From Gammaproteobacteria bacterium (GTDB taxonomy: Bacteria > Pseudomonadota > Gammaproteobacteria > Eutrophobiales > Eutrophobiaceae), in NCBI GenBank assembly GCA_965215365.1, contig CBDCDS010000003.1, forward strand, positions 192,001 through 256,000: DNA of 64,000 nucleotides, written 5' to 3'. Positions within the stretch are counted from its first letter, which is position 1. Each line of letters starts with the position of its first letter. The position numbers and the translations under genes were made by a program. Under the pieces are notes generated by a model. That model worked only from the letters and a program-made list of their open reading frames with translations. It did not search any database and was not told the origin of the DNA. Shown piece after piece: positions 26,590 to 34,993 of this stretch.

Positions 26590-29500
26590 TTGTTGAGTAT
26601 TGAAAAGTTTCAATCACTTATCAATATACCGCCAGCAAAGCCGGTAGCAGAAATATTGGGCGAGGCACAACAGAACCCCGCAACAACTTTTGCATACTGT
26701 CTTCAGGAAAATTACAAGATGAACCTGTACAGTAGAAACATAGTCATGGGCCTGTCACAACATGCAGAGTTCTATGAGGCCAAGCACGGCATGCTGAATG
26801 CCCCCGTTTACCGGCAGGTCGATGTCAGGGCACCGGCGCTGAAACCGTTCACCGGCGCGGCATCCCCCTGGTGGGGCGATTATGAGATGAATACATACGC
26901 GGTCCCGGAAACGATCAGGCAGAACAAGCGGGCAAACCTTGAAGCAGGCGAAGATGTACTGGATATATCGATTGGGTATCCCAAAATACAGGTGGTTAAT
27001 TACAAGGCCGAAAATAAATTCATTATTTATGCTTCGGAGCAGGTTTCGGCCACGGGCCTCGCGCCCGGGCGCCAACAGTCAGCACATTTTATTTCCGGCC
27101 CCATACTCAGTGTGATCGAAGGAGTTAAATCGGTGCAATTGCTGGGTCCTGAGTATGCCCCCGGTGCGCAAACCGGTTTTAGCGGGCAAGCCGGTAGGGT
27201 CGGTAAACGAATAGCCGGCTCGCCATTCCCTGATGTCAGAAGGATGATAGAATCCGACAAGCCCGTGACCTTGGAGGTGACCTGCCAGGATGGCTCGCAC
27301 CACCGGGTCGTGATTAAAAACAAAAAGGTGATGATGCATATAGACAATAGGGAGATGGGAAGAAACAACGCGTTTTATGGAAATAGTAAGGGTGCAGAGG
27401 TTCTGAATAAAGGCAAGGTGTTGCAGGATTTTGCTGACGTCAATACGTATAGCTATAACGGAACATACACCGGTGTCTTCAGTTCCCCCACTGGCAGGAG
27501 GGAGCCACAACTGGTGACCGATAACCAGGAAAACCTGCCCCTGGCACCGATTATTACCCCTGCGCCGGGCCAGTGGCCAGAAATTACCGAGGCATATCAG
27601 CGCGTTATCAGGGAAATTACCCAGCTGGGACAATCAACCTTATTCGGACGGAACATCCTGGCTAGAGTGCTTTTGAACCCCGCACTGAATGCCACGACAA
27701 AAACAGCAATGATCATGCTTTCACACCAGATTGCCAGTAATTTTACAAGAGCCAATATTAGCGCGTTTGGCACCGCTGTCCCAGTGGTAGCTTCAATTGG
27801 AACGCCACAGTTCTGGGCTGGGATTTTTGCACTGGTGGTCATTCAGAATCTGGCCGACAAGGCATTGAGAAAAGTTCTGGCGCCGCTGGTCCCAAAGGAG
27901 CTATTAAGCGACGATAATTTTCTCACCAGGCATCTCACGCGGGTTTTGGGCAATTGTTCGATAGAATTTGCCCGTTTGATGATCAACCACTCTATTCTGT
28001 TCGCTACCGGGTTCAAGAAACACCACATAGAGATCCCCGTACACTTGGCCCAAGCCAGCACCTACGCAGTCATTCGAGAGGCCCGAAGACAGTATGGAGA
28101 CAGGCGCTCTTATCCTCTCACACATGCAATATTTGACCTTCTGCAATTCACCAATGATGTGGCTTGGAGGTCACTGGGAAATACTCTGGCATATCAACAG
28201 ACCGCCCCAAGTCCACCTGCGGATACTCCTGACAGCAACGCAGTTAGCCCGGAAGTGGCGGGCTCGGGCGCATCAGGCTCAGGCATGATCGAGCCGAGTA
28301 CGGGCGAGGCAATGGCGAACTCAGACCCACCGCTGGCAGGAACAGGAGAGGCTTATTTACAGGCGCTGGCACAGCGGACGAGCGTTCGTGTCACCGATAA
28401 ACTGTTTTTTCCAACGTTAGCGCAACTGTCCGACCATATCAAACCCGCCGATGGCAAAGGACCGGTTGCAGACCAGTTCAAGCGGATATACCGAGACAAG
28501 CTACCGCTATCGAATAAATTATCGTCCGCGAGCGTGTGGATCGATGAAAAATCCTATAAATATACTCCTGAAATGTACAAGCATCTCTGGTTTCATGCTC
28601 CCTCTTATGGCGCACGCATGAACAGGGTCTGGCTGCTTTTCAGGATGCACTTGAAGTTGGCTGCCTGTTGTTCTCGCGGGAACTCTTTGCTTACCCCGCA
28701 GGACAGAGACATCGCGGCATTGTTGGACACGTATGCTGATGCCAGTGACGAGCAAAAAAGTGAATTTATGGCGACGCGTGGTAAAGAAGTTGAAGCGCTG
28801 CTCGAGCGTATCAGCTACGAAAAACAGGTGCTCGACCCGCAGCAACAAAAGTTTTTTCAACGCTACACGCAAATGCTGGGTGTGAATACAGAGCCCTCAA
28901 GATCGGGAGGGACAGCAGGCGGCACTTCCGCCCCGGTCGATAGCGATCCCGTTTTGGAATCCTCGGGGGAGCCTCTCCAACCCGTGAATACGCCACCGGC
29001 CTCGAGCAGACCTTCCCGACCTTTCGACAGAGGCCCCGCCCTCGGCCCCCTGTACAAAGAAAGTGCGTTTTTGGAACCGGATAAACGTGACGGTAGCGTT
29101 CATAAAAAAGATACGACTTTCTCTGACCGCTACCAGGTCAATATCATGGAAATGCAGAGCAGGATGCGTGCGGCAGCCTCACTTGAAGAAGATATAAATA
29201 CGCACTTCCCCGGCCCCGAACACTCCCATTTCCGGGAAGAATTGAGGCGGGCCATCTCAAGCTACACCGTTGAATCCGGCTTTTTCCATCTTCCCTTGCG
29301 ATACGCACACACGGGGCAGCCCAGGTGGATCGAAGCGGTCAGGGGAATCAAAATTCCTTACACCGTGCTTAACACTCCCAATAACGTGACGGACGAGTTC
29401 ACCGAGCAAGTCGATCCGATTGGCGCAATGTACATTAATCTGGCTCTGCGTGATGCCGCAAAATTTTCTTTTCCGGTAATACGCGGGGTTCACACGGTAG

Positions 29501-30501
29501 CGGGCTATCGCTCAGATACACAGCCCAGCACGCCGGGAGCCGGGGTATTTGACATAGAACCGACGGACATAAGTACCGGCGATATCGTGATGAATACCGA
29601 AATGCTGTCGACATCTACCTCGGACACGATGGGCAAGAACTTCAGTATGGCTATCGACATGGGCATGACGGATACAAGGCGGCGTCTTAAATATGTAATC
29701 GAAGGAGATACAGCCGTGAATATCACCCAGCATACAGATCTCAATCAGGCCGAAGCCATTTATACTCCGGGCGCCCAGTTCAAGGTAACCGGCATCAGCG
29801 GAACCCCTGAAGATCTCGGGCTGGTAGTTCGTGCAAAACAGATCAATACCTATGAGGAATGGGAACTGGGCGAGGGAAAGGAAGGCATAAAGATGAAGGA
29901 TCCGGCAACCGGGCGGCTCAGCCGGGCCGGAAAGTTTTTTGCGCCCAGGAATTATTTCCTGGGACATTGCGTTACAAGCGAAAAGCAAGAGGATTATGGG
30001 CCGTCACGCTGGCTCCGACCTTTCGACGCGCCAAACACGCCCAGAGGAATCCGGGACGCGATTCACGCGGCCTTCCTCAGAGAGGATGATCTGCTCAGGG
30101 CAGCCCCCGGTGATCGACTGGAACGGTCATATTTGGATTTGGCCACAGAAAACATTCACCATGAACACTACCGCAACCGCGCGGTCACGCGCGCCAGGGA
30201 GCAGGTACAGAAATATTTCCCCGAATTGATCTCGGGCAATGACATCCCCGATCTGACAGAATTGCAGGAGCGCCGGGAGGAAGATAGTGGACCCTCAGGT
30301 AGGGAATCGCCTCTGGCGAGCGCAGCACAGGCGGGTAGCGATGCAAGACGGTTAAGAGAAGCTGAGCTCGATCAGGCGCAGCGGGTATTTGAACACGAAA
30401 AGCACCGAGAGGCAGAAATACGAGACACACACGTCAAAGCGGGTACGCTTGCCACCTGGTTCGCCCACAATGATAACAATAGCGATAGGAGCTTGATGTA
30501 A
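26590..30501 (+). CDS. Fragment 2: hydrophobic segment + R-S-E type ADP-ribosyltransferase domain
   Basis: AISSYT...LR, VIRGV, GDIVMNTEMLSTS, NQAEAIYTPGAQFKV (about 29230-29850). Confidence 0.7.
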   Translation: MLSIEKFQSLINIPPAKPVAEILGEAQQNPATTFAYCLQENYKMNLYSRNIVMGLSQHAEFYEAKHGMLNAPVYRQVDVRAPALKPFTGAASPWWGDYEMNTYAVPETIRQNKRANLEAGEDVLDISIGYPKIQVVNYKAENKFIIYASEQVSATGLAPGRQQSAHFISGPILSVIEGVKSVQLLGPEYAPGAQTGFSGQAGRVGKRIAGSPFPDVRRMIESDKPVTLEVTCQDGSHHRVVIKNKKVMMHIDNREMGRNNAFYGNSKGAEVLNKGKVLQDFADVNTYSYNGTYTGVFSSPTGRREPQLVTDNQENLPLAPIITPAPGQWPEITEAYQRVIREITQLGQSTLFGRNILARVLLNPALNATTKTAMIMLSHQIASNFTRANISAFGTAVPVVASIGTPQFWAGIFALVVIQNLADKALRKVLAPLVPKELLSDDNFLTRHLTRVLGNCSIEFARLMINHSILFATGFKKHHIEIPVHLAQASTYAVIREARRQYGDRRSYPLTHAIFDLLQFTNDVAWRSLGNTLAYQQTAPSPPADTPDSNAVSPEVAGSGASGSGMIEPSTGEAMANSDPPLAGTGEAYLQALAQRTSVRVTDKLFFPTLAQLSDHIKPADGKGPVADQFKRIYRDKLPLSNKLSSASVWIDEKSYKYTPEMYKHLWFHAPSYGARMNRVWLLFRMHLKLAACCSRGNSLLTPQDRDIAALLDTYADASDEQKSEFMATRGKEVEALLERISYEKQVLDPQQQKFFQRYTQMLGVNTEPSRSGGTAGGTSAPVDSDPVLESSGEPLQPVNTPPASSRPSRPFDRGPALGPLYKESAFLEPDKRDGSVHKKDTTFSDRYQVNIMEMQSRMRAAASLEEDINTHFPGPEHSHFREELRRAISSYTVESGFFHLPLRYAHTGQPRWIEAVRGIKIPYTVLNTPNNVTDEFTEQVDPIGAMYINLALRDAAKFSFPVIRGVHTVAGYRSDTQPSTPGAGVFDIEPTDISTGDIVMNTEMLSTSTSDTMGKNFSMAIDMGMTDTRRRLKYVIEGDTAVNITQHTDLNQAEAIYTPGAQFKVTGISGTPEDLGLVVRAKQINTYEEWELGEGKEGIKMKDPATGRLSRAGKFFAPRNYFLGHCVTSEKQEDYGPSRWLRPFDAPNTPRGIRDAIHAAFLREDDLLRAAPGDRLERSYLDLATENIHHEHYRNRAVTRAREQVQKYFPELISGNDIPDLTELQERREEDSGPSGRESPLASAAQAGSDARRLREAELDQAQRVFEHEKHREAEIRDTHVKAGTLATWFAHNDNNSDRSLM

Positions 30502-30971
30502 ACTCGGCCATCTACGCAGAGAAAGAAAAGTTTCTCATCTGGCTTACCGCCAATGTATTGAGACGCGAGATCAACCTGATCGACCTGCAAGGCGATTCTA
30601 AATCCATTTATAGAGTCCAGCGAGCTTACGACGGTGTTAACCTGAGCGACACTCATAAAGGCACTGCACAAACCCCGTTCATCATCGGTGTCATCCATGA
30701 GGGTGAGAACAAGGGGTACTACGCAGTGGCTCCCGGTAGCGAGGGATTCTTGCAATGGCGCCGGGTTGCAGCTACCGGAGACGAATTAAGCACCGGTAAC
30801 CTGCTGCATGCCGTATTTATTTCCAGGCTTGCCAAGGCAGACGACTATTCGGTTTTATCGGGAAACAACACCATTACACCGCGCGCAGGCGCTACCAGAA
30901 CCGTAACCGAACTACTGGAGTTAACAAAACGGCTTTCCAGACTCAACTATTTACCTTTTCAAAGAGCAATG
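30489..30971 (+). pseudogene. Fragment 3: frameshifted continuation cut by IS66
   Basis: FLIWLTANVLRREINLIDL...GYYAVAP...NLLHAVF...YLPFQRAM aligns with the C-terminus of 33377-34993. Confidence 0.7.
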
Positions 30972-31024
30972 GTAACTACTCGCCCCCTCCCTCTAATTCT
31001 ACTGAATTTTTTGTCAAGGCGTCC

Positions 31025-31053
31025 TTGACAACATAGCGTCATGGCGTTATGTT
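31025..31053 (+). promoter_or_regulatory. Sigma70 promoter inside the IS left end
   Basis: TTGACA (31025-31030), 17-bp spacer, TATGTT (31048-31053); ATG follows 7 nt later; overlapped by two palindromes. Confidence 0.7.
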
Positions 31054-31060
31054 GGTCGTC

Positions 31061-31741
31061 ATGGGGAATGCGTACCGAGGGTCGAAAGCCACGACGGGTC
31101 TGTGCCAGCCGCTCATTGCGATGATGCCGCCGCACAGTGTGTACATTGAGACACACTTAGGCGGCGGGGCGATTATGCAGCGCAAGCCGGCGGCGTTGCG
31201 CAACATTGGGATTGATCTTGATGTGCGGGCGTTGGCGGGGTTTACGTGTGGGTATCCGGTGGAGTTGGTGCAGGGGTGTTGTCACCGCTGGTTGGCGACT
31301 TTTCCGTTTGACGGCACGGAGTTGGTGTACAGCGACCCGCCCTACCTGCACAGCACGCGCAAGTCACGGCACCGTTACCGGTATGACTACGAGGACTCAG
31401 ACCATGAGGCGCTGCTGGCGTTACTGCAGGGGCTGCCCTGTGCGGTGATGGTGTCGGGGTATCCTTCGGCCTTGTATGATGAGGTGCTGGCGGGCTGGCG
31501 CAGTGTGTCCTTGCAGGTGATGAATCAGGGCGGGGTGGTGACCGAGCGGGTCTGGTTCAATTTTGTGCCGGACCGGGTGCACTGGGTGCGCTATGCGGGG
31601 CGCAACTTCACGCACCGCCAGCAGGTCAAGCGCAAGGCTGAGAACTGGGGGCGGCGTTATCGTGACTTGCCCCCGGCCGAGCGGCTGGCGGTGCTGGCGG
31701 CGATGATGGCGGTGGAGGCACAGTGCACATGGCCACGGTGA
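31061..31741 (+). CDS. DNA adenine methyltransferase (compact Dam/D12-like), IS passenger gene
   Basis: Motif X YRGSK, motif I YIETHLGGGA, GIDLD, motif IV YSDPPY, VMVSGY, TERVWFNF. Confidence 0.85.
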   Translation: MGNAYRGSKATTGLCQPLIAMMPPHSVYIETHLGGGAIMQRKPAALRNIGIDLDVRALAGFTCGYPVELVQGCCHRWLATFPFDGTELVYSDPPYLHSTRKSRHRYRYDYEDSDHEALLALLQGLPCAVMVSGYPSALYDEVLAGWRSVSLQVMNQGGVVTERVWFNFVPDRVHWVRYAGRNFTHRQQVKRKAENWGRRYRDLPPAERLAVLAAMMAVEAQCTWPR

Positions 31742-33246
31742 ACAAGGCCTCATTGCGTGCGGAGTTCGAGGCCATCCGAATGCGTTTTAAGGCGTTGTGC
31801 GCCGACGGCGCGCTGAGTCCCGAAGGGCGTGCGCTGTTCGAGTCGATGTTGCTGCTATTCGAGTTGCTGCTGGCGGTGTTCTTAGAGAAGACCACACCGA
31901 AGGGGGCGCACAACTCCAGCCTGCCCAGTTCCCGCACCGACCCCGATGACAGTGCGCGCACACGGCCCGGCAAGCAGGGCAAGGGGCCGCAGACCGGGAC
32001 GGTGCCCAGCGCGTCCCGGCGCGTGGTGGCTCAGACCCGCACGGTGCCCGTGACCGGCTGCCGGGCCTGCGGGCATGATCTCAAAGGCACCGCCCCCACC
32101 GGCCATGTGCGACGAGTCAAGGTCGATATAGTCTTCGAGACGACCGAGTTGACCATTGACGCCGAGATAAAAACCTGTCCGCGCTGTGGCACTGAGACCC
32201 ACGGGGCGTTTCCCGATGACATGCCGGGGCCTTTACAATACGGCCCTGGCATCGTGGCTTTCGCCACGCACCTGTTAACGGCCCAAATGCTCTCGCTCAA
32301 ACGTACGGCGCAGACACTTCATGCACTGACCGGGCGCGCCGTCGCCGAGGCGACCTTACTGGCCTGGCTCACGCGGGTGCATGAGGCCCTGGCCGGGTGG
32401 GAGCGGGCGGCTATCGCCCGCCTGCTCACAGAGCCCGTGCTGCACGCCGATGAGACCTCCTTGCGCATCGACCGCACACAACACTGGCTGCACAGCACCA
32501 GTGCCGGGAACCTGGTACTGAAACACTGCCACCGCAAGCGGGGCGGGGACGCCCTCAAGGACATCGGCATCGTCCCCCGCTACGGCGGTGTTCTCGTGCA
32601 CGACCGCTGGGCCAGCTACTTCGCCTATGACAACTGCGAGCATGCCCTGTGCGGCAGTCACCTGTTGCGTAACTTGGCCTTTATCGAGGACGCCCACGGC
32701 CATGCCTGGGCCCAACGTATGAGCCGCCTCCTGCTCAAGACCTGCCGACAGGTGCGCACACATAAAAACAAGGCACTCAGCGAGACCGACTACCAGTCCC
32801 TGCGCACCCGCTACCGGACTATCCTGACACAAGCCAAACGGGAACTCCCCACACCCCCGAAACGGCTCACCGGCCAACGCGGACGGATTGCCCAATGTGA
32901 GGCACAAAACCTCCATGATGCCCTCGTCAAGTACGAAACCGAAGTCCTCCGCTTCGCCCGCGACCCCAACGTGCCGTTCACCAACAACCGCGCCGAACGC
33001 GATATCCGTATGGCTAAAGTCAAACAAAAAGTCTCCGGCTGCTTCCGAACCACCGCCTACGCCGACACCTACTGCCGCATCTCCAGCTACTTGCAGTCTA
33101 TGACCCTGAAGGGCTACAATCCCCTCGCCGCCATCGAGATAGCACTCAAGGGAGACGCCGCCACCATGGTGGAAAAACCGCTCAAAAATAAAACGGTTAA
33201 GAAAAACCAGATCAGAACAAGAGATCAGGGTAAGGGGGGCGAGTAG
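31729..33246 (+). CDS. IS66 family transposase
   Basis: NSSLPSS, zinc finger CRACG...CPRCG, LHADETS, VHDRWASY, CGSHLLRNL, FTNNRAERDIRMAKVKQKVSGCFR. Confidence 0.93.
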   Translation: MATVNKASLRAEFEAIRMRFKALCADGALSPEGRALFESMLLLFELLLAVFLEKTTPKGAHNSSLPSSRTDPDDSARTRPGKQGKGPQTGTVPSASRRVVAQTRTVPVTGCRACGHDLKGTAPTGHVRRVKVDIVFETTELTIDAEIKTCPRCGTETHGAFPDDMPGPLQYGPGIVAFATHLLTAQMLSLKRTAQTLHALTGRAVAEATLLAWLTRVHEALAGWERAAIARLLTEPVLHADETSLRIDRTQHWLHSTSAGNLVLKHCHRKRGGDALKDIGIVPRYGGVLVHDRWASYFAYDNCEHALCGSHLLRNLAFIEDAHGHAWAQRMSRLLLKTCRQVRTHKNKALSETDYQSLRTRYRTILTQAKRELPTPPKRLTGQRGRIAQCEAQNLHDALVKYETEVLRFARDPNVPFTNNRAERDIRMAKVKQKVSGCFRTTAYADTYCRISSYLQSMTLKGYNPLAAIEIALKGDAATMVEKPLKNKTVKKNQIRTRDQGKGGE

Positions 33247-33376
33247 TTACGAGCAATGATAAAAGAAAGCGATAAGCAGTTCAGGCCAACCCCAAGGCCC
33301 GGCGCAGCAGCAGTCCCAAGGCCGGAACAAGGGGCAACCATTTCGGCAGTCCATGAGGCAGACCGAATGAGTTTTC

Positions 33377-34993
33377 TTGCAGAAATCGTTTAACCGGCCT
33401 GCTACGATGAGTTCAAAACCTGATTCCAATCTGTTCAAATCGTTGCCCGAGTCGGCAGAGCTACAAGAAGATTTCAAGGAAATTTTTGTTGAATCCTTGT
33501 TCGACGAAAACAGTCTGCAAGCCGTTTATATGAATCTGGCTTTAGGTGAAGCGGGGGAAACATTACCGAACATTACAGGCAACCTCAACGTTTTGTCGGA
33601 TAATCTCATCGGCACCGACATCGACCTGTGGGCTGTTACCGCCGCATGGCCGACCTGGGAACTTAGCCCGGGTGACATGCTCACCAACACCAGGCTTTTT
33701 TCGACGCCAGCAGGTAGTGAGAAAGTGATACGCGGTGTGACAGCCAAAAATCCCCTGCGCGACGACCGAGGCAGCAACATATCCGTTTACGCCGCAGGAG
33801 CTGTGTTTCGGGTTGAGAGCGCCAGGAATGCTCCCGGTGACAGCGTGCAGCCCGGCTTTTACTTAAAACAAGTCAACACGTATCTTGAGTGGGAGTTAGG
33901 TGAAAACGGCGATGGCATCACCATGGATGTTGAGACCGGACACTTACTCATGAACAGTGAGTTCTTCAGCCCAAGGGACTATTTTTCCGGTATGCCAGTC
34001 AACCGACCGGAGGATGTGACGCTGGGTTCGGCGAGGTGGTATCGTCCATTTGATTCCCCAACCGCATCGAAACCTGTGCGCGACGCTATACATGATGCCA
34101 TCCTCGCAAACCACCCTGTCAATCCGGCCCTGAACAAGGCCACACAGAATATTCATCATGAATATTTTCGGCAGCAGGCAGTTACACAGGCACGCGCCGA
34201 TATACGAGAAATATTGCAAGCCGATTGGGAGAGTGACTGGAAACAACGACCGGGATCTGAATTGACCGGCAAGGAGTTGACAAAATTCAATCGAGCTGCA
34301 CTTATTCGCACCCATGAACAACACCGAGAGGCACTCATCGCCAGGACTAATCGTAAATCGCAACAGCTTGCCGACATAATTGCGGGGCTGCGGCCGCACC
34401 AGCATACTGAGGAGGGAACACGGCAGTTGGTAATCTGGCTGCTTGCAAATATTCTGCGGCGGGAAATCAGGTTGTTAGACCTCGCTGACAAGGGAGCCGA
34501 TGCGGCAACCGGCCCTGATTTAATTTACTCTGTATCAAAGGGTTATGATGGCACCGAGCTGGCTGCAGGCAGTCGCCATGGCGGCGCCTCGGCATCGGAA
34601 GATAATTTTGCCCAGACCTGTCCGCCACTGGTAATTGGCATGGTAGGCAGCAACCAGACGAACCAACGCGGGTATTACGCGGTTGCCCCCGACAACGACC
34701 GTCAAAAATTGATCTGGCGGCGGTTGATGGAGGACCAGGGGGGGCTCACTGTAAGTAACCTGCTGCACGCCGTGTTTGCCACTGAATACGCCGAGCAACA
34801 GGACTACATACTGCACAATGACGGGCTCTGTTTGTCAGCTACAGCCAGCAGCCGACGCGTGGTGACAGATTGGCTGTTCTTGTTGAAACATTTCTCAAGC
34901 CTGGACTACGAGCCGTTCCAGCGCGCGCTGGTGGCCCACAATCCGGGATTCGATCCCGGCTCGAATCCTGAGGCTGTATTGATACGTCCCTGA
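33377..34993 (+). CDS. Fragment 4: second copy of the module (degenerate ART-like + C-terminal domain)
   Basis: KQVNTYLEWELGE, FFSPRDYF, RPFD, IHHEYFR and LLANILRREI parallel fragments 2-3; STS and QxE motifs absent. Confidence 0.7.
   Translation: MQKSFNRPATMSSKPDSNLFKSLPESAELQEDFKEIFVESLFDENSLQAVYMNLALGEAGETLPNITGNLNVLSDNLIGTDIDLWAVTAAWPTWELSPGDMLTNTRLFSTPAGSEKVIRGVTAKNPLRDDRGSNISVYAAGAVFRVESARNAPGDSVQPGFYLKQVNTYLEWELGENGDGITMDVETGHLLMNSEFFSPRDYFSGMPVNRPEDVTLGSARWYRPFDSPTASKPVRDAIHDAILANHPVNPALNKATQNIHHEYFRQQAVTQARADIREILQADWESDWKQRPGSELTGKELTKFNRAALIRTHEQHREALIARTNRKSQQLADIIAGLRPHQHTEEGTRQLVIWLLANILRREIRLLDLADKGADAATGPDLIYSVSKGYDGTELAAGSRHGGASASEDNFAQTCPPLVIGMVGSNQTNQRGYYAVAPDNDRQKLIWRRLMEDQGGLTVSNLLHAVFATEYAEQQDYILHNDGLCLSATASSRRVVTDWLFLLKHFSSLDYEPFQRALVAHNPGFDPGSNPEAVLIRP

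Follow-up and report, generated by a model that had tools for sequence, protein, structure and literature searches.

An IS66-family insertion sequence with a portable adenine methylase cassette and a conserved palindrome at its promoter

The usual picture of an insertion sequence (IS) is a transposase flanked by its ends, which leaves regulation to factors of the host such as Dam, whose methylation controls IS10, IS50 and IS903. Why, then, would an IS carry a DNA methylase gene of its own? This question is raised by a 64,000-nt stretch of DNA (the window) from a Gammaproteobacteria bacterium of the family Eutrophobiaceae (assembly GCA_965215365.1, contig CBDCDS010000003.1, forward-strand positions 192,001 to 256,000), in which an IS66-family element of 2279 bp (30972-33250) holds two co-oriented genes, a compact adenine methylase followed by a transposase. 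The element appears to supply its own methylase along with a control site that is conserved, and unrelated transposases appear to use this module too; we propose that the methylase may regulate the promoter from which both genes are transcribed. Full-text searches of the literature, which did not extend to ISfinder, TnPedia, REBASE or supplementary files, turned up no IS66 element and no other insertion sequence described as carrying such a methylase cassette.

The boundaries of the element are sharp. Its terminal inverted repeats (IRs), GTAACTACTCGCCCCC at 30972-30987 (+ strand) and its partner at 33235-33250 (- strand), are complementary at 16/16 positions and form the longest inverted pair that a repeat search detected in the region, and the 8-bp target-site duplication GAGCAATG stands as a direct repeat on both sides (30964-30971 and 33251-33258). 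The GTAACTACTCGCCCCC terminus is common to related methylase-bearing elements and to methylase-less sister elements. Termini starting 5'-GTAA and an 8-bp duplication are features of the IS66 family, as in ISfinder, and both are present here. Two open reading frames (ORFs) in the same orientation fill the element, namely the methylase gene (31061-31741, + strand, 226 aa) and an IS66-family DDE transposase gene (31729-33246, + strand, 505 aa) whose stop codon lies inside the right repeat. The transposase matches PF03050 (E 2.1e-42, 145.9 bits, cut-off 23.1) and NF033517 (E 7.9e-74, 249 bits, cut-off 180). No third family-bearing gene, endonuclease included, was seen between the repeats in a family scan that left out antisense ORFs of at least 50 aa. 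In a PADLOC scan the methylase was called MTase_II and the transposase had no match; no cognate endonuclease gene was seen beside the methylase, unlike in a restriction-modification system. The first-pass annotation had described perfect 16-bp IRs, an 8-bp duplication and two genes only, the second a single-ORF IS66 transposase, and each of these points is borne out. The G+C content rises from ~50-57% in the flanks to 59-66% within the element, in keeping with a foreign origin.

The element is one of many copies of an active IS66-family insertion sequence. Its own genome (2.73 Mb, 3 contigs) contains 13 full-length copies of 2279 bp at ~100% identity plus several fragments, and all 15 intact methylase ORFs of this genome sit inside copies of the element. 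Copy boundaries were located through exact 40-mers, which delimited nine copies and left out three further loci without a match; seven of these nine carry their own 8-bp duplication, differing in sequence from copy to copy. Two full-length copies lacking a duplication share their right flank with a third, duplication-bearing copy (loci L001, L005 and L008), a pattern that points to homologous recombination among the copies or to duplication of a segment. In contigs assembled from three sequencing runs, the read depth of the element was ~11-18x that of its flanks; the junction at the 30972-33250 site was present, and several other flanks joined the ends at 30972 and 33250-33252. No contig from four runs bridged the element to give an empty target site, a search of contigs only that has no bearing on absence. 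A methylase relative (E <= 1e-20) was found in 3/401 genomes of the same phylum, the window's genome included, so the element was acquired horizontally; the sole other sampled genome of the family, within the same 401, held none. Near-identical cassette-bearing elements occur in metagenome-assembled genomes (MAGs) labelled as several phyla. One locus (L079:3853-5067) holds a 1215-bp derivative with both inverted repeats, the methylase cassette and an 8-bp duplication, GATTCGTC, in which the transposase gene is missing; it is a non-autonomous methylase-only element.

What kind of enzyme does the first gene encode? As listed, the ORF opens at ATG 31049 (230 aa). We prefer ATG 31061, because homologues are 219-228 aa long and ATG 31049 sits in the predicted -10 box, and this start gives the 226 aa assumed in the first-pass annotation. 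The protein has the S-adenosylmethionine (SAM)-binding motif I (HLGGGA) and the motif IV DPPY of the D12 class, and both regions align to DpnM; together with the overlap of the two genes, the DPPY motif upholds the earlier description of an adenine-methylase-like first gene of a two-gene unit. Matches to PF02086 (18.6 bits, cut-off 22) and TIGR00571 (22.9 bits, cut-off 114.85) fall below the curated thresholds, and the protein is called a DNA methyltransferase by PHROG 56 (4e-20) and by PADLOC MTase_II (7e-21). The family is large, with 4564 proteins at E <= 1e-3 in a word-indexed search and, in an exhaustive search, 6122 cluster representatives at E <= 1e-3 and 600 at E <= 1e-30; no close relative was found in viral contigs with the window methylase as query. 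Across 41 methylases, down to 38% identity, residues H25, G34, D92, P93, P94, H115 and S132 are invariant, and Y95 of the DPPY motif is kept in at least 90% of the sequences.

A profile built from the methylase alignment matches DpnM (E 7.6e-8), EcoDam and T4 Dam at the motif I and DPPY regions. Query residues 18-69 correspond to DpnM 30-82 and residues 71-157 to DpnM 176-265; the ~90 residues of DpnM between these blocks find no counterpart, and the target-recognition insert is thus missing from the window protein, in which motif I and DPPY are separated by ~60 residues vs ~150 in DpnM. In the AlphaFold model (predicted local distance difference test 90.4, predicted template-modelling score 0.84), a Rossmann core leads into two long helices at the C terminus. 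The best Foldseek matches of the model are EcoDam chains (template-modelling score 0.52-0.55 on the query), with many RNA and small-molecule methylases scoring similarly. A predicted homodimer received a complex score of 0.23, below the mark of 0.42, a result that weighs neither in favour of a dimer nor against it. We read the first ORF as a genuine compact Dam-related adenine methylase whose target-recognition part is unlike that of Dam.

Expression of both genes appears to start from one promoter. A sigma-70-like sequence, TTGACA-17 nt-TATGTT (31025-31053, + strand, 10 of 12 matches), is the only promoter-like site in 30900-33350 (shuffled sequences gave a mean of 0.5), and the same architecture is kept in relatives. 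The methylase ATG begins exactly 7 nt downstream of the -10 box, and no ribosome-binding site precedes it, so its mRNA is probably leaderless; this spacing recurs in 14 other distinct cassettes, and in others a leader of 24-50 nt precedes the methylase start. At the other end of the gene, a ribosome-binding site for the transposase, GGAGG (31714-31718, + strand), lies in the last methylase codons, 10 nt before ATG 31729. This ATG begins 10 nt before the methylase stop TGA (31739-31741), so that the two ORFs overlap by 13 nt; an earlier statement of the 10-nt distance agrees with these coordinates, and overlap or abutment is kept in 17/18 relatives, with -13 to +12 nt between methylase stop and transposase start, the 18th element having a frameshifted methylase. 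Both the GTGGAGGC motif at the junction and the closeness of stop and start are kept in relatives, and in elements with an unrelated transposase of DDE_Tnp_1 type, described below, 5/6 junctions are ATGA or GTGA overlaps. Translational coupling from methylase to transposase is plausible given this conserved arrangement. At six loci (L022, L024, L042, L083, L105 and L154) the methylase stop and the transposase start are in one frame, 3-9 nt apart, and at another (L040) a single open frame of 587 aa spans the methylase and the first part of the transposase; read-through or fused methylase-transposase forms may exist.

Between the -35 and -10 boxes lies a palindrome, ATAG-N10-(C/T)TAT (31033-31050), whose second arm overlaps the -10 box. 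The exact form TTGAC.-NN-ATAG-N10-CTA is present in 39/49 distinct IS-borne upstream regions; the window copy and one other are off by one base in the second arm, and the rest are truncated or variant. In 33 distinct 32-mers aligned by anchoring on the motif, a choice that favours the anchored positions, the eight arm positions are conserved in 31-33/33 and the ten spacer positions in 11-20/33. The feature reaches beyond insertion sequences, being found upstream of 14/21 plasmid or chromosomal homologues (43-53% protein identity), six with ATAG-N10-CTAT and eight with ATCG-N10-CGAT. These non-IS loci have 1-3 palindrome copies, often in tandem, with a single form per locus, and the ATCG form belongs to one well-supported methylase clade (8/8 rows, one change on the tree). 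An intergenic feature kept at such protein divergence is probably functional, and the fact that both arms change while symmetry is kept points to a sequence-specific partner; the methylase is the sole gene that always accompanies the palindrome. On the IncP-1 plasmid pB3 (L094:3880-3960), two tandem copies of GCATCG-N10-CGATGC lie upstream of the methylase homologue upf31.0, with one copy flanked by a TTGACA box and the gene start; we know of no described IncP-1 operator with this sequence. Another candidate, the palindrome TTGTCAAGG-CGT-CCTTGACAA over the -35 box of the window copy, is not conserved in loci L013 or L015 and was dropped.

Promoter, palindrome, methylase gene and the ribosome-binding site for the next gene together make up a cassette of ~0.7 kb (31024-31723, + strand; element positions 53-752), which was delimited by its likeness to DDE_Tnp_1-type elements. 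In blastn comparisons with these elements only positions 53-752 match, at 76-79% identity, a stretch that spans the -35 box to nearly the methylase stop and that occupies the identical site, between the left end and the transposase gene, in both kinds of element. Two methylase-seeded scans yielded 67 distinct methylase loci. An IS66-type transposase follows the methylase in 41 of them, falling into three lineages (44-78%, ~33% and ~25% identical to the window's transposase), and an unrelated transposase follows in 16; no recognised transposase follows in the other 10, of which two lie at the end of a contig and in one an IS66 gene is found 400 nt beyond. The unrelated transposase gives weak, sub-cut-off Pfam matches to DDE_Tnp_1 and DDE_Tnp_1_assoc and no NCBIfam match, which leaves it without an IS family, and its elements are 2133 bp long with 18-bp IRs (CAGCAGTTCTCATTTTGG) and 9-bp duplications. 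Methylases linked to different transposase types intermingle on the methylase tree, which calls for 7 changes of type vs a minimum of 3, many of the branches involved being weakly supported. The cassette appears to have moved between unrelated transposase backbones. We regard the structural part of this account, that is the element, the cassette and the junction, as close to certain.

The pairing of methylase and transposase recurs, and its presence or absence follows relatedness. A transposase-seeded search returned 80 loci, 42 with a near-full-length methylase directly upstream, two with a methylase fragment and 36 with none. A 44-row transposase tree places every one of the 15 methylase-linked rows in one clade (support 99). 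Two unlinked rows lie inside it, and their genomes also hold linked copies; the other 25 unlinked rows fall outside, and the linkage label requires 3 changes on the tree. The first-pass annotation had named co-phylogeny as a check on the pairing, and the grouping of 15/15 linked transposases away from their methylase-less relatives passes it. Within the window's own transposase lineage the two proteins diverge together, with the methylase the slower of the two: relative to the window's pair, the identities (methylase/transposase) are 90/78, 85/75, 80/70, 76/59, 73/59, 72/54 and 67/52%, and those of the second IS66 lineage are 70-74/33%. The methylase is therefore also a handy marker for such elements.

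The methylase-less relatives are single-gene elements of 1.59-1.73 kb with the IR GTAACTACTCGCCCC and a transposase 46-52% identical to the window's; an 8-bp duplication was detected in 6/13 of those examined. Among them are ~1.7-kb sisters in the cultured methanotrophs Methylotuvimicrobium and Methylomicrobium (L240, L249 and L255), with the GTAACTACTCGCCCC terminus and 8-bp duplications, which would offer natural controls for experiments. Set against these relatives, the window element has an ISBst12-type backbone, with a larger insert in place of the ~250 bp that otherwise separate the left end from the transposase start.

Outside insertion sequences, the nearest relatives of the methylase are orphan methylases of conjugative plasmids, including upf31.0 of IncP-1 plasmids. 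A plasmid collection gave 190 records with a homologue, all below 60% identity, and 133/190 are on plasmids typed conjugative. In pB3, upf31.0 is annotated 'putative site-specific DNA-methyltransferase' and lies between the trb genes and parA. No transposase stood beside the plasmid methylase in the three neighbourhoods inspected, and in methylase trees the IS-borne enzymes form one clade apart from the plasmid ones (support 98-99). On a Citrobacter plasmid (L185:380-1388) and a Pseudomonas plasmid (L189:404-1415), the methylase homologue overlaps a downstream gene annotated as 8-oxoguanine DNA glycosylase; methylase and glycosylase are a recurring pair on plasmids.

What could the cassette do for the transposase? 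We propose that the methylase controls its own promoter and thereby that of the transposase, an idea to which, on sequence evidence, we give an even chance of being right. The transposase would be made from the methylase mRNA. The methylase would recognise the palindrome, through occupancy or through methylation of adenines in the two half-sites (one being in the -10 box), and this recognition would lower transcription from the shared promoter. Methylase and transposase would then be produced in a burst in a methylase-free cell, or when the site is hemimethylated after replication, and the shut-off would grow with copy number as methylase from all copies pools. The outcome would be a self-encoded, host-independent counterpart of the Dam control of IS10 and IS50. 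Self-regulated methylase promoters occur in some restriction-modification systems. Methylation of the element's own promoter had been among the possibilities raised in the first-pass annotation, and a palindrome over the -10 box that varies with methylase clade lends it indirect support.

Several observations weigh against autoregulation. The second palindrome arm of the window copy itself reads TTAT, with one mismatch; the column counts come from motif-anchored sequences and share their bias towards the arms; and 7/21 non-IS homologues have no such palindrome within ~170 nt upstream. ATAG gave way to ATCG only once in evolution, which makes the covariation one data point, and a linked promoter and gene are inherited together anyway. 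The half-sites are 14 bp apart centre to centre, which is unusual for a dimeric repressor. Finally, the conjugative-plasmid relatives suit an anti-restriction role equally well.

That role is the core of the main rival, in which the methylase is cargo: it would modify host or replicon DNA and shield it after transfer or alter the methylome, and its link to the transposase would be shared transcription only. This explanation fits the ancestry of the enzyme among plasmid orphan methylases (133/190 conjugative, upf31.0 included). A strong, near-consensus promoter and a probably leaderless start suit early, host-independent expression, and the presence of the elements in MAGs labelled as several phyla but in only 3/401 genomes of the window's phylum points to frequent horizontal transfer. 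Cargo would, however, be expected to be placed freely, yet the methylase is always the first gene by the left end, abutting the transposase, in two unrelated families; the conserved palindrome over the -10 box is left unexplained, and a single methylase specificity guards against few restriction systems. We consider cargo on its own rather unlikely, and the two roles are not mutually exclusive.

A further possibility is that the cassette is kept as an expression module only, valued for its promoter, translated leader and ribosome-binding site, with methylase activity irrelevant. The cassette does contain the only promoter-like site of the element, GGAGG and the stop/start coupling are conserved, and the module has apparently moved between backbones (7 changes vs a minimum of 3 on the methylase tree). 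Against this, no variation is seen at the SAM-binding and DPPY residues across 41 sequences with identities as low as 38%, and the methylase outconserves its transposase (for instance 90/78, 85/75, 73/59 and 70/33%), which together argue for selection on the methylase enzyme itself and make an expression module improbable.

Slightly less probable still is that the methylase marks the ends of the element rather than its promoter, so that methylation near the IRs would steer transposase binding or strand choice. Dam acts at the inner end of IS10. The precedent of IS10 and IS50 is also named in PMC9296519. The window copy has two GATC sites, at 33210 and 33223, 12-40 nt inside the right repeat. 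These sites had been pointed out before, and they are indeed present; the hint that they are a methylation target falls, since only 1/6 related right ends keeps one of the two, and we rejected them as candidates. The element's promoter contains no GATC, so a conserved GATC of the IS10/IS50 kind is missing there too. Moreover, the same cassette serves elements with unrelated ends, GTAACTAC... (8-bp duplications) and CAGCAGTTC... (9-bp), and the methylase-less sisters have the same IR as the window element; a methylation target shared by the ends is therefore unlikely.

A chance neighbourhood, in which an orphan methylase happens to lie beside an IS66 transposase with fortuitous repeats, can draw only on the weak methylase Pfam score (18.6 bits vs cut-off 22) and is refuted, its probability being negligible, by 13 full-length copies with the same boundaries at different sites (7/9 examined with their own duplication) and by the two-gene unit with the same termini in many other genomes.

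Beyond autoregulation in this one element, we suggest tentatively, and with rather more doubt than belief, that the cassette is a horizontally exchangeable epigenetic governor for any transposase that captures it, descended from self-regulated orphan methylases of conjugative plasmids. Should the methylase indeed regulate the promoter, this would amount to a portable control of copy number and timing, and could account for the 13 to >50 copies per genome that such elements attain and for their spread across Dam-less phyla. An adenine methylase encoded in many copies should be visible in long-read data of the host as a methylation motif across the genome.

The insertion site itself is of some interest. 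The element interrupts a large gene that matches no Pfam family, ~20 codons before the gene end. Upstream of the element, an ORF at 26590-30501 (1303 aa) and another at 30558-30971 are colinear with residues 47-332 and 360-518 of a paralogue of 538 aa on the other side (33377-34993), with 31-37% identity to the split ORFs. Contigs of three runs have one extra G after 30487 relative to the window, which would alter the reading frame of the 1303-aa ORF close to its end and probably fuses this ORF with the one at 30558; either an assembly error or a genuine frameshift variant could underlie the difference.

How does this element compare with systems already known? With canonical IS66/IS679 elements, organised as tnpA-tnpB-tnpC, it shares the transposase family and the presence of an accessory gene upstream of, and closely coupled to, the transposase gene. 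It differs in that this upstream slot holds a DNA methylase instead of TnpA/TnpB; in Pfam and NCBIfam scans neither ORF matched a TnpA or TnpB family, so the three-gene organisation is not that of the window element. Closer is the ISBst12 group (ISBst12, ISDge4), with a size range of ~1.4-1.9 kb, which has in common with it an IS66-type DDE transposase, an 8-bp duplication, termini starting GTAACT and no tnpA/tnpB. In PMC12898284, ISDge4 is given with terminal inverted repeats GTGACTACTCAGCA and GTAACTGCTCAGCA, an 8-bp direct repeat and one ORF. The window element, at 2.28 kb, has in addition a methylase gene that sits, together with a promoter and palindrome of its own, between the left end and the transposase; its two genes in 2279 bp set it apart from the single-ORF members of the group, into which its nearest methylase-less relatives do fit.

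As for the methylase, it resembles the D12-class (PF02086) enzymes E. coli Dam, DpnM and T4 Dam in its alignable motif I and DPPY regions and in having EcoDam as its best fold match, and differs from them in carrying two C-terminal helices rich in basic residues instead of the Dam target-recognition insert. The IncP-1 upf31.0-type plasmid methylases are of the same family, with 43-53% identity over ~90% of the length, and the plasmid orphan methylases share the promoter architecture with a palindrome between -35 and -10. They differ in lying outside insertion sequences, with no downstream transposase, and the IncP-1 clade has ATCG/CGAT arms. The proposed logic is closest to the Dam control of IS10, IS50 and IS903, in which adenine methylation at a transposase promoter ties transposase supply to replication or to the entry of unmethylated DNA. 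Here, however, the methylase is encoded by the element itself, and the candidate site is ATAG-N10-CTAT and not GATC.

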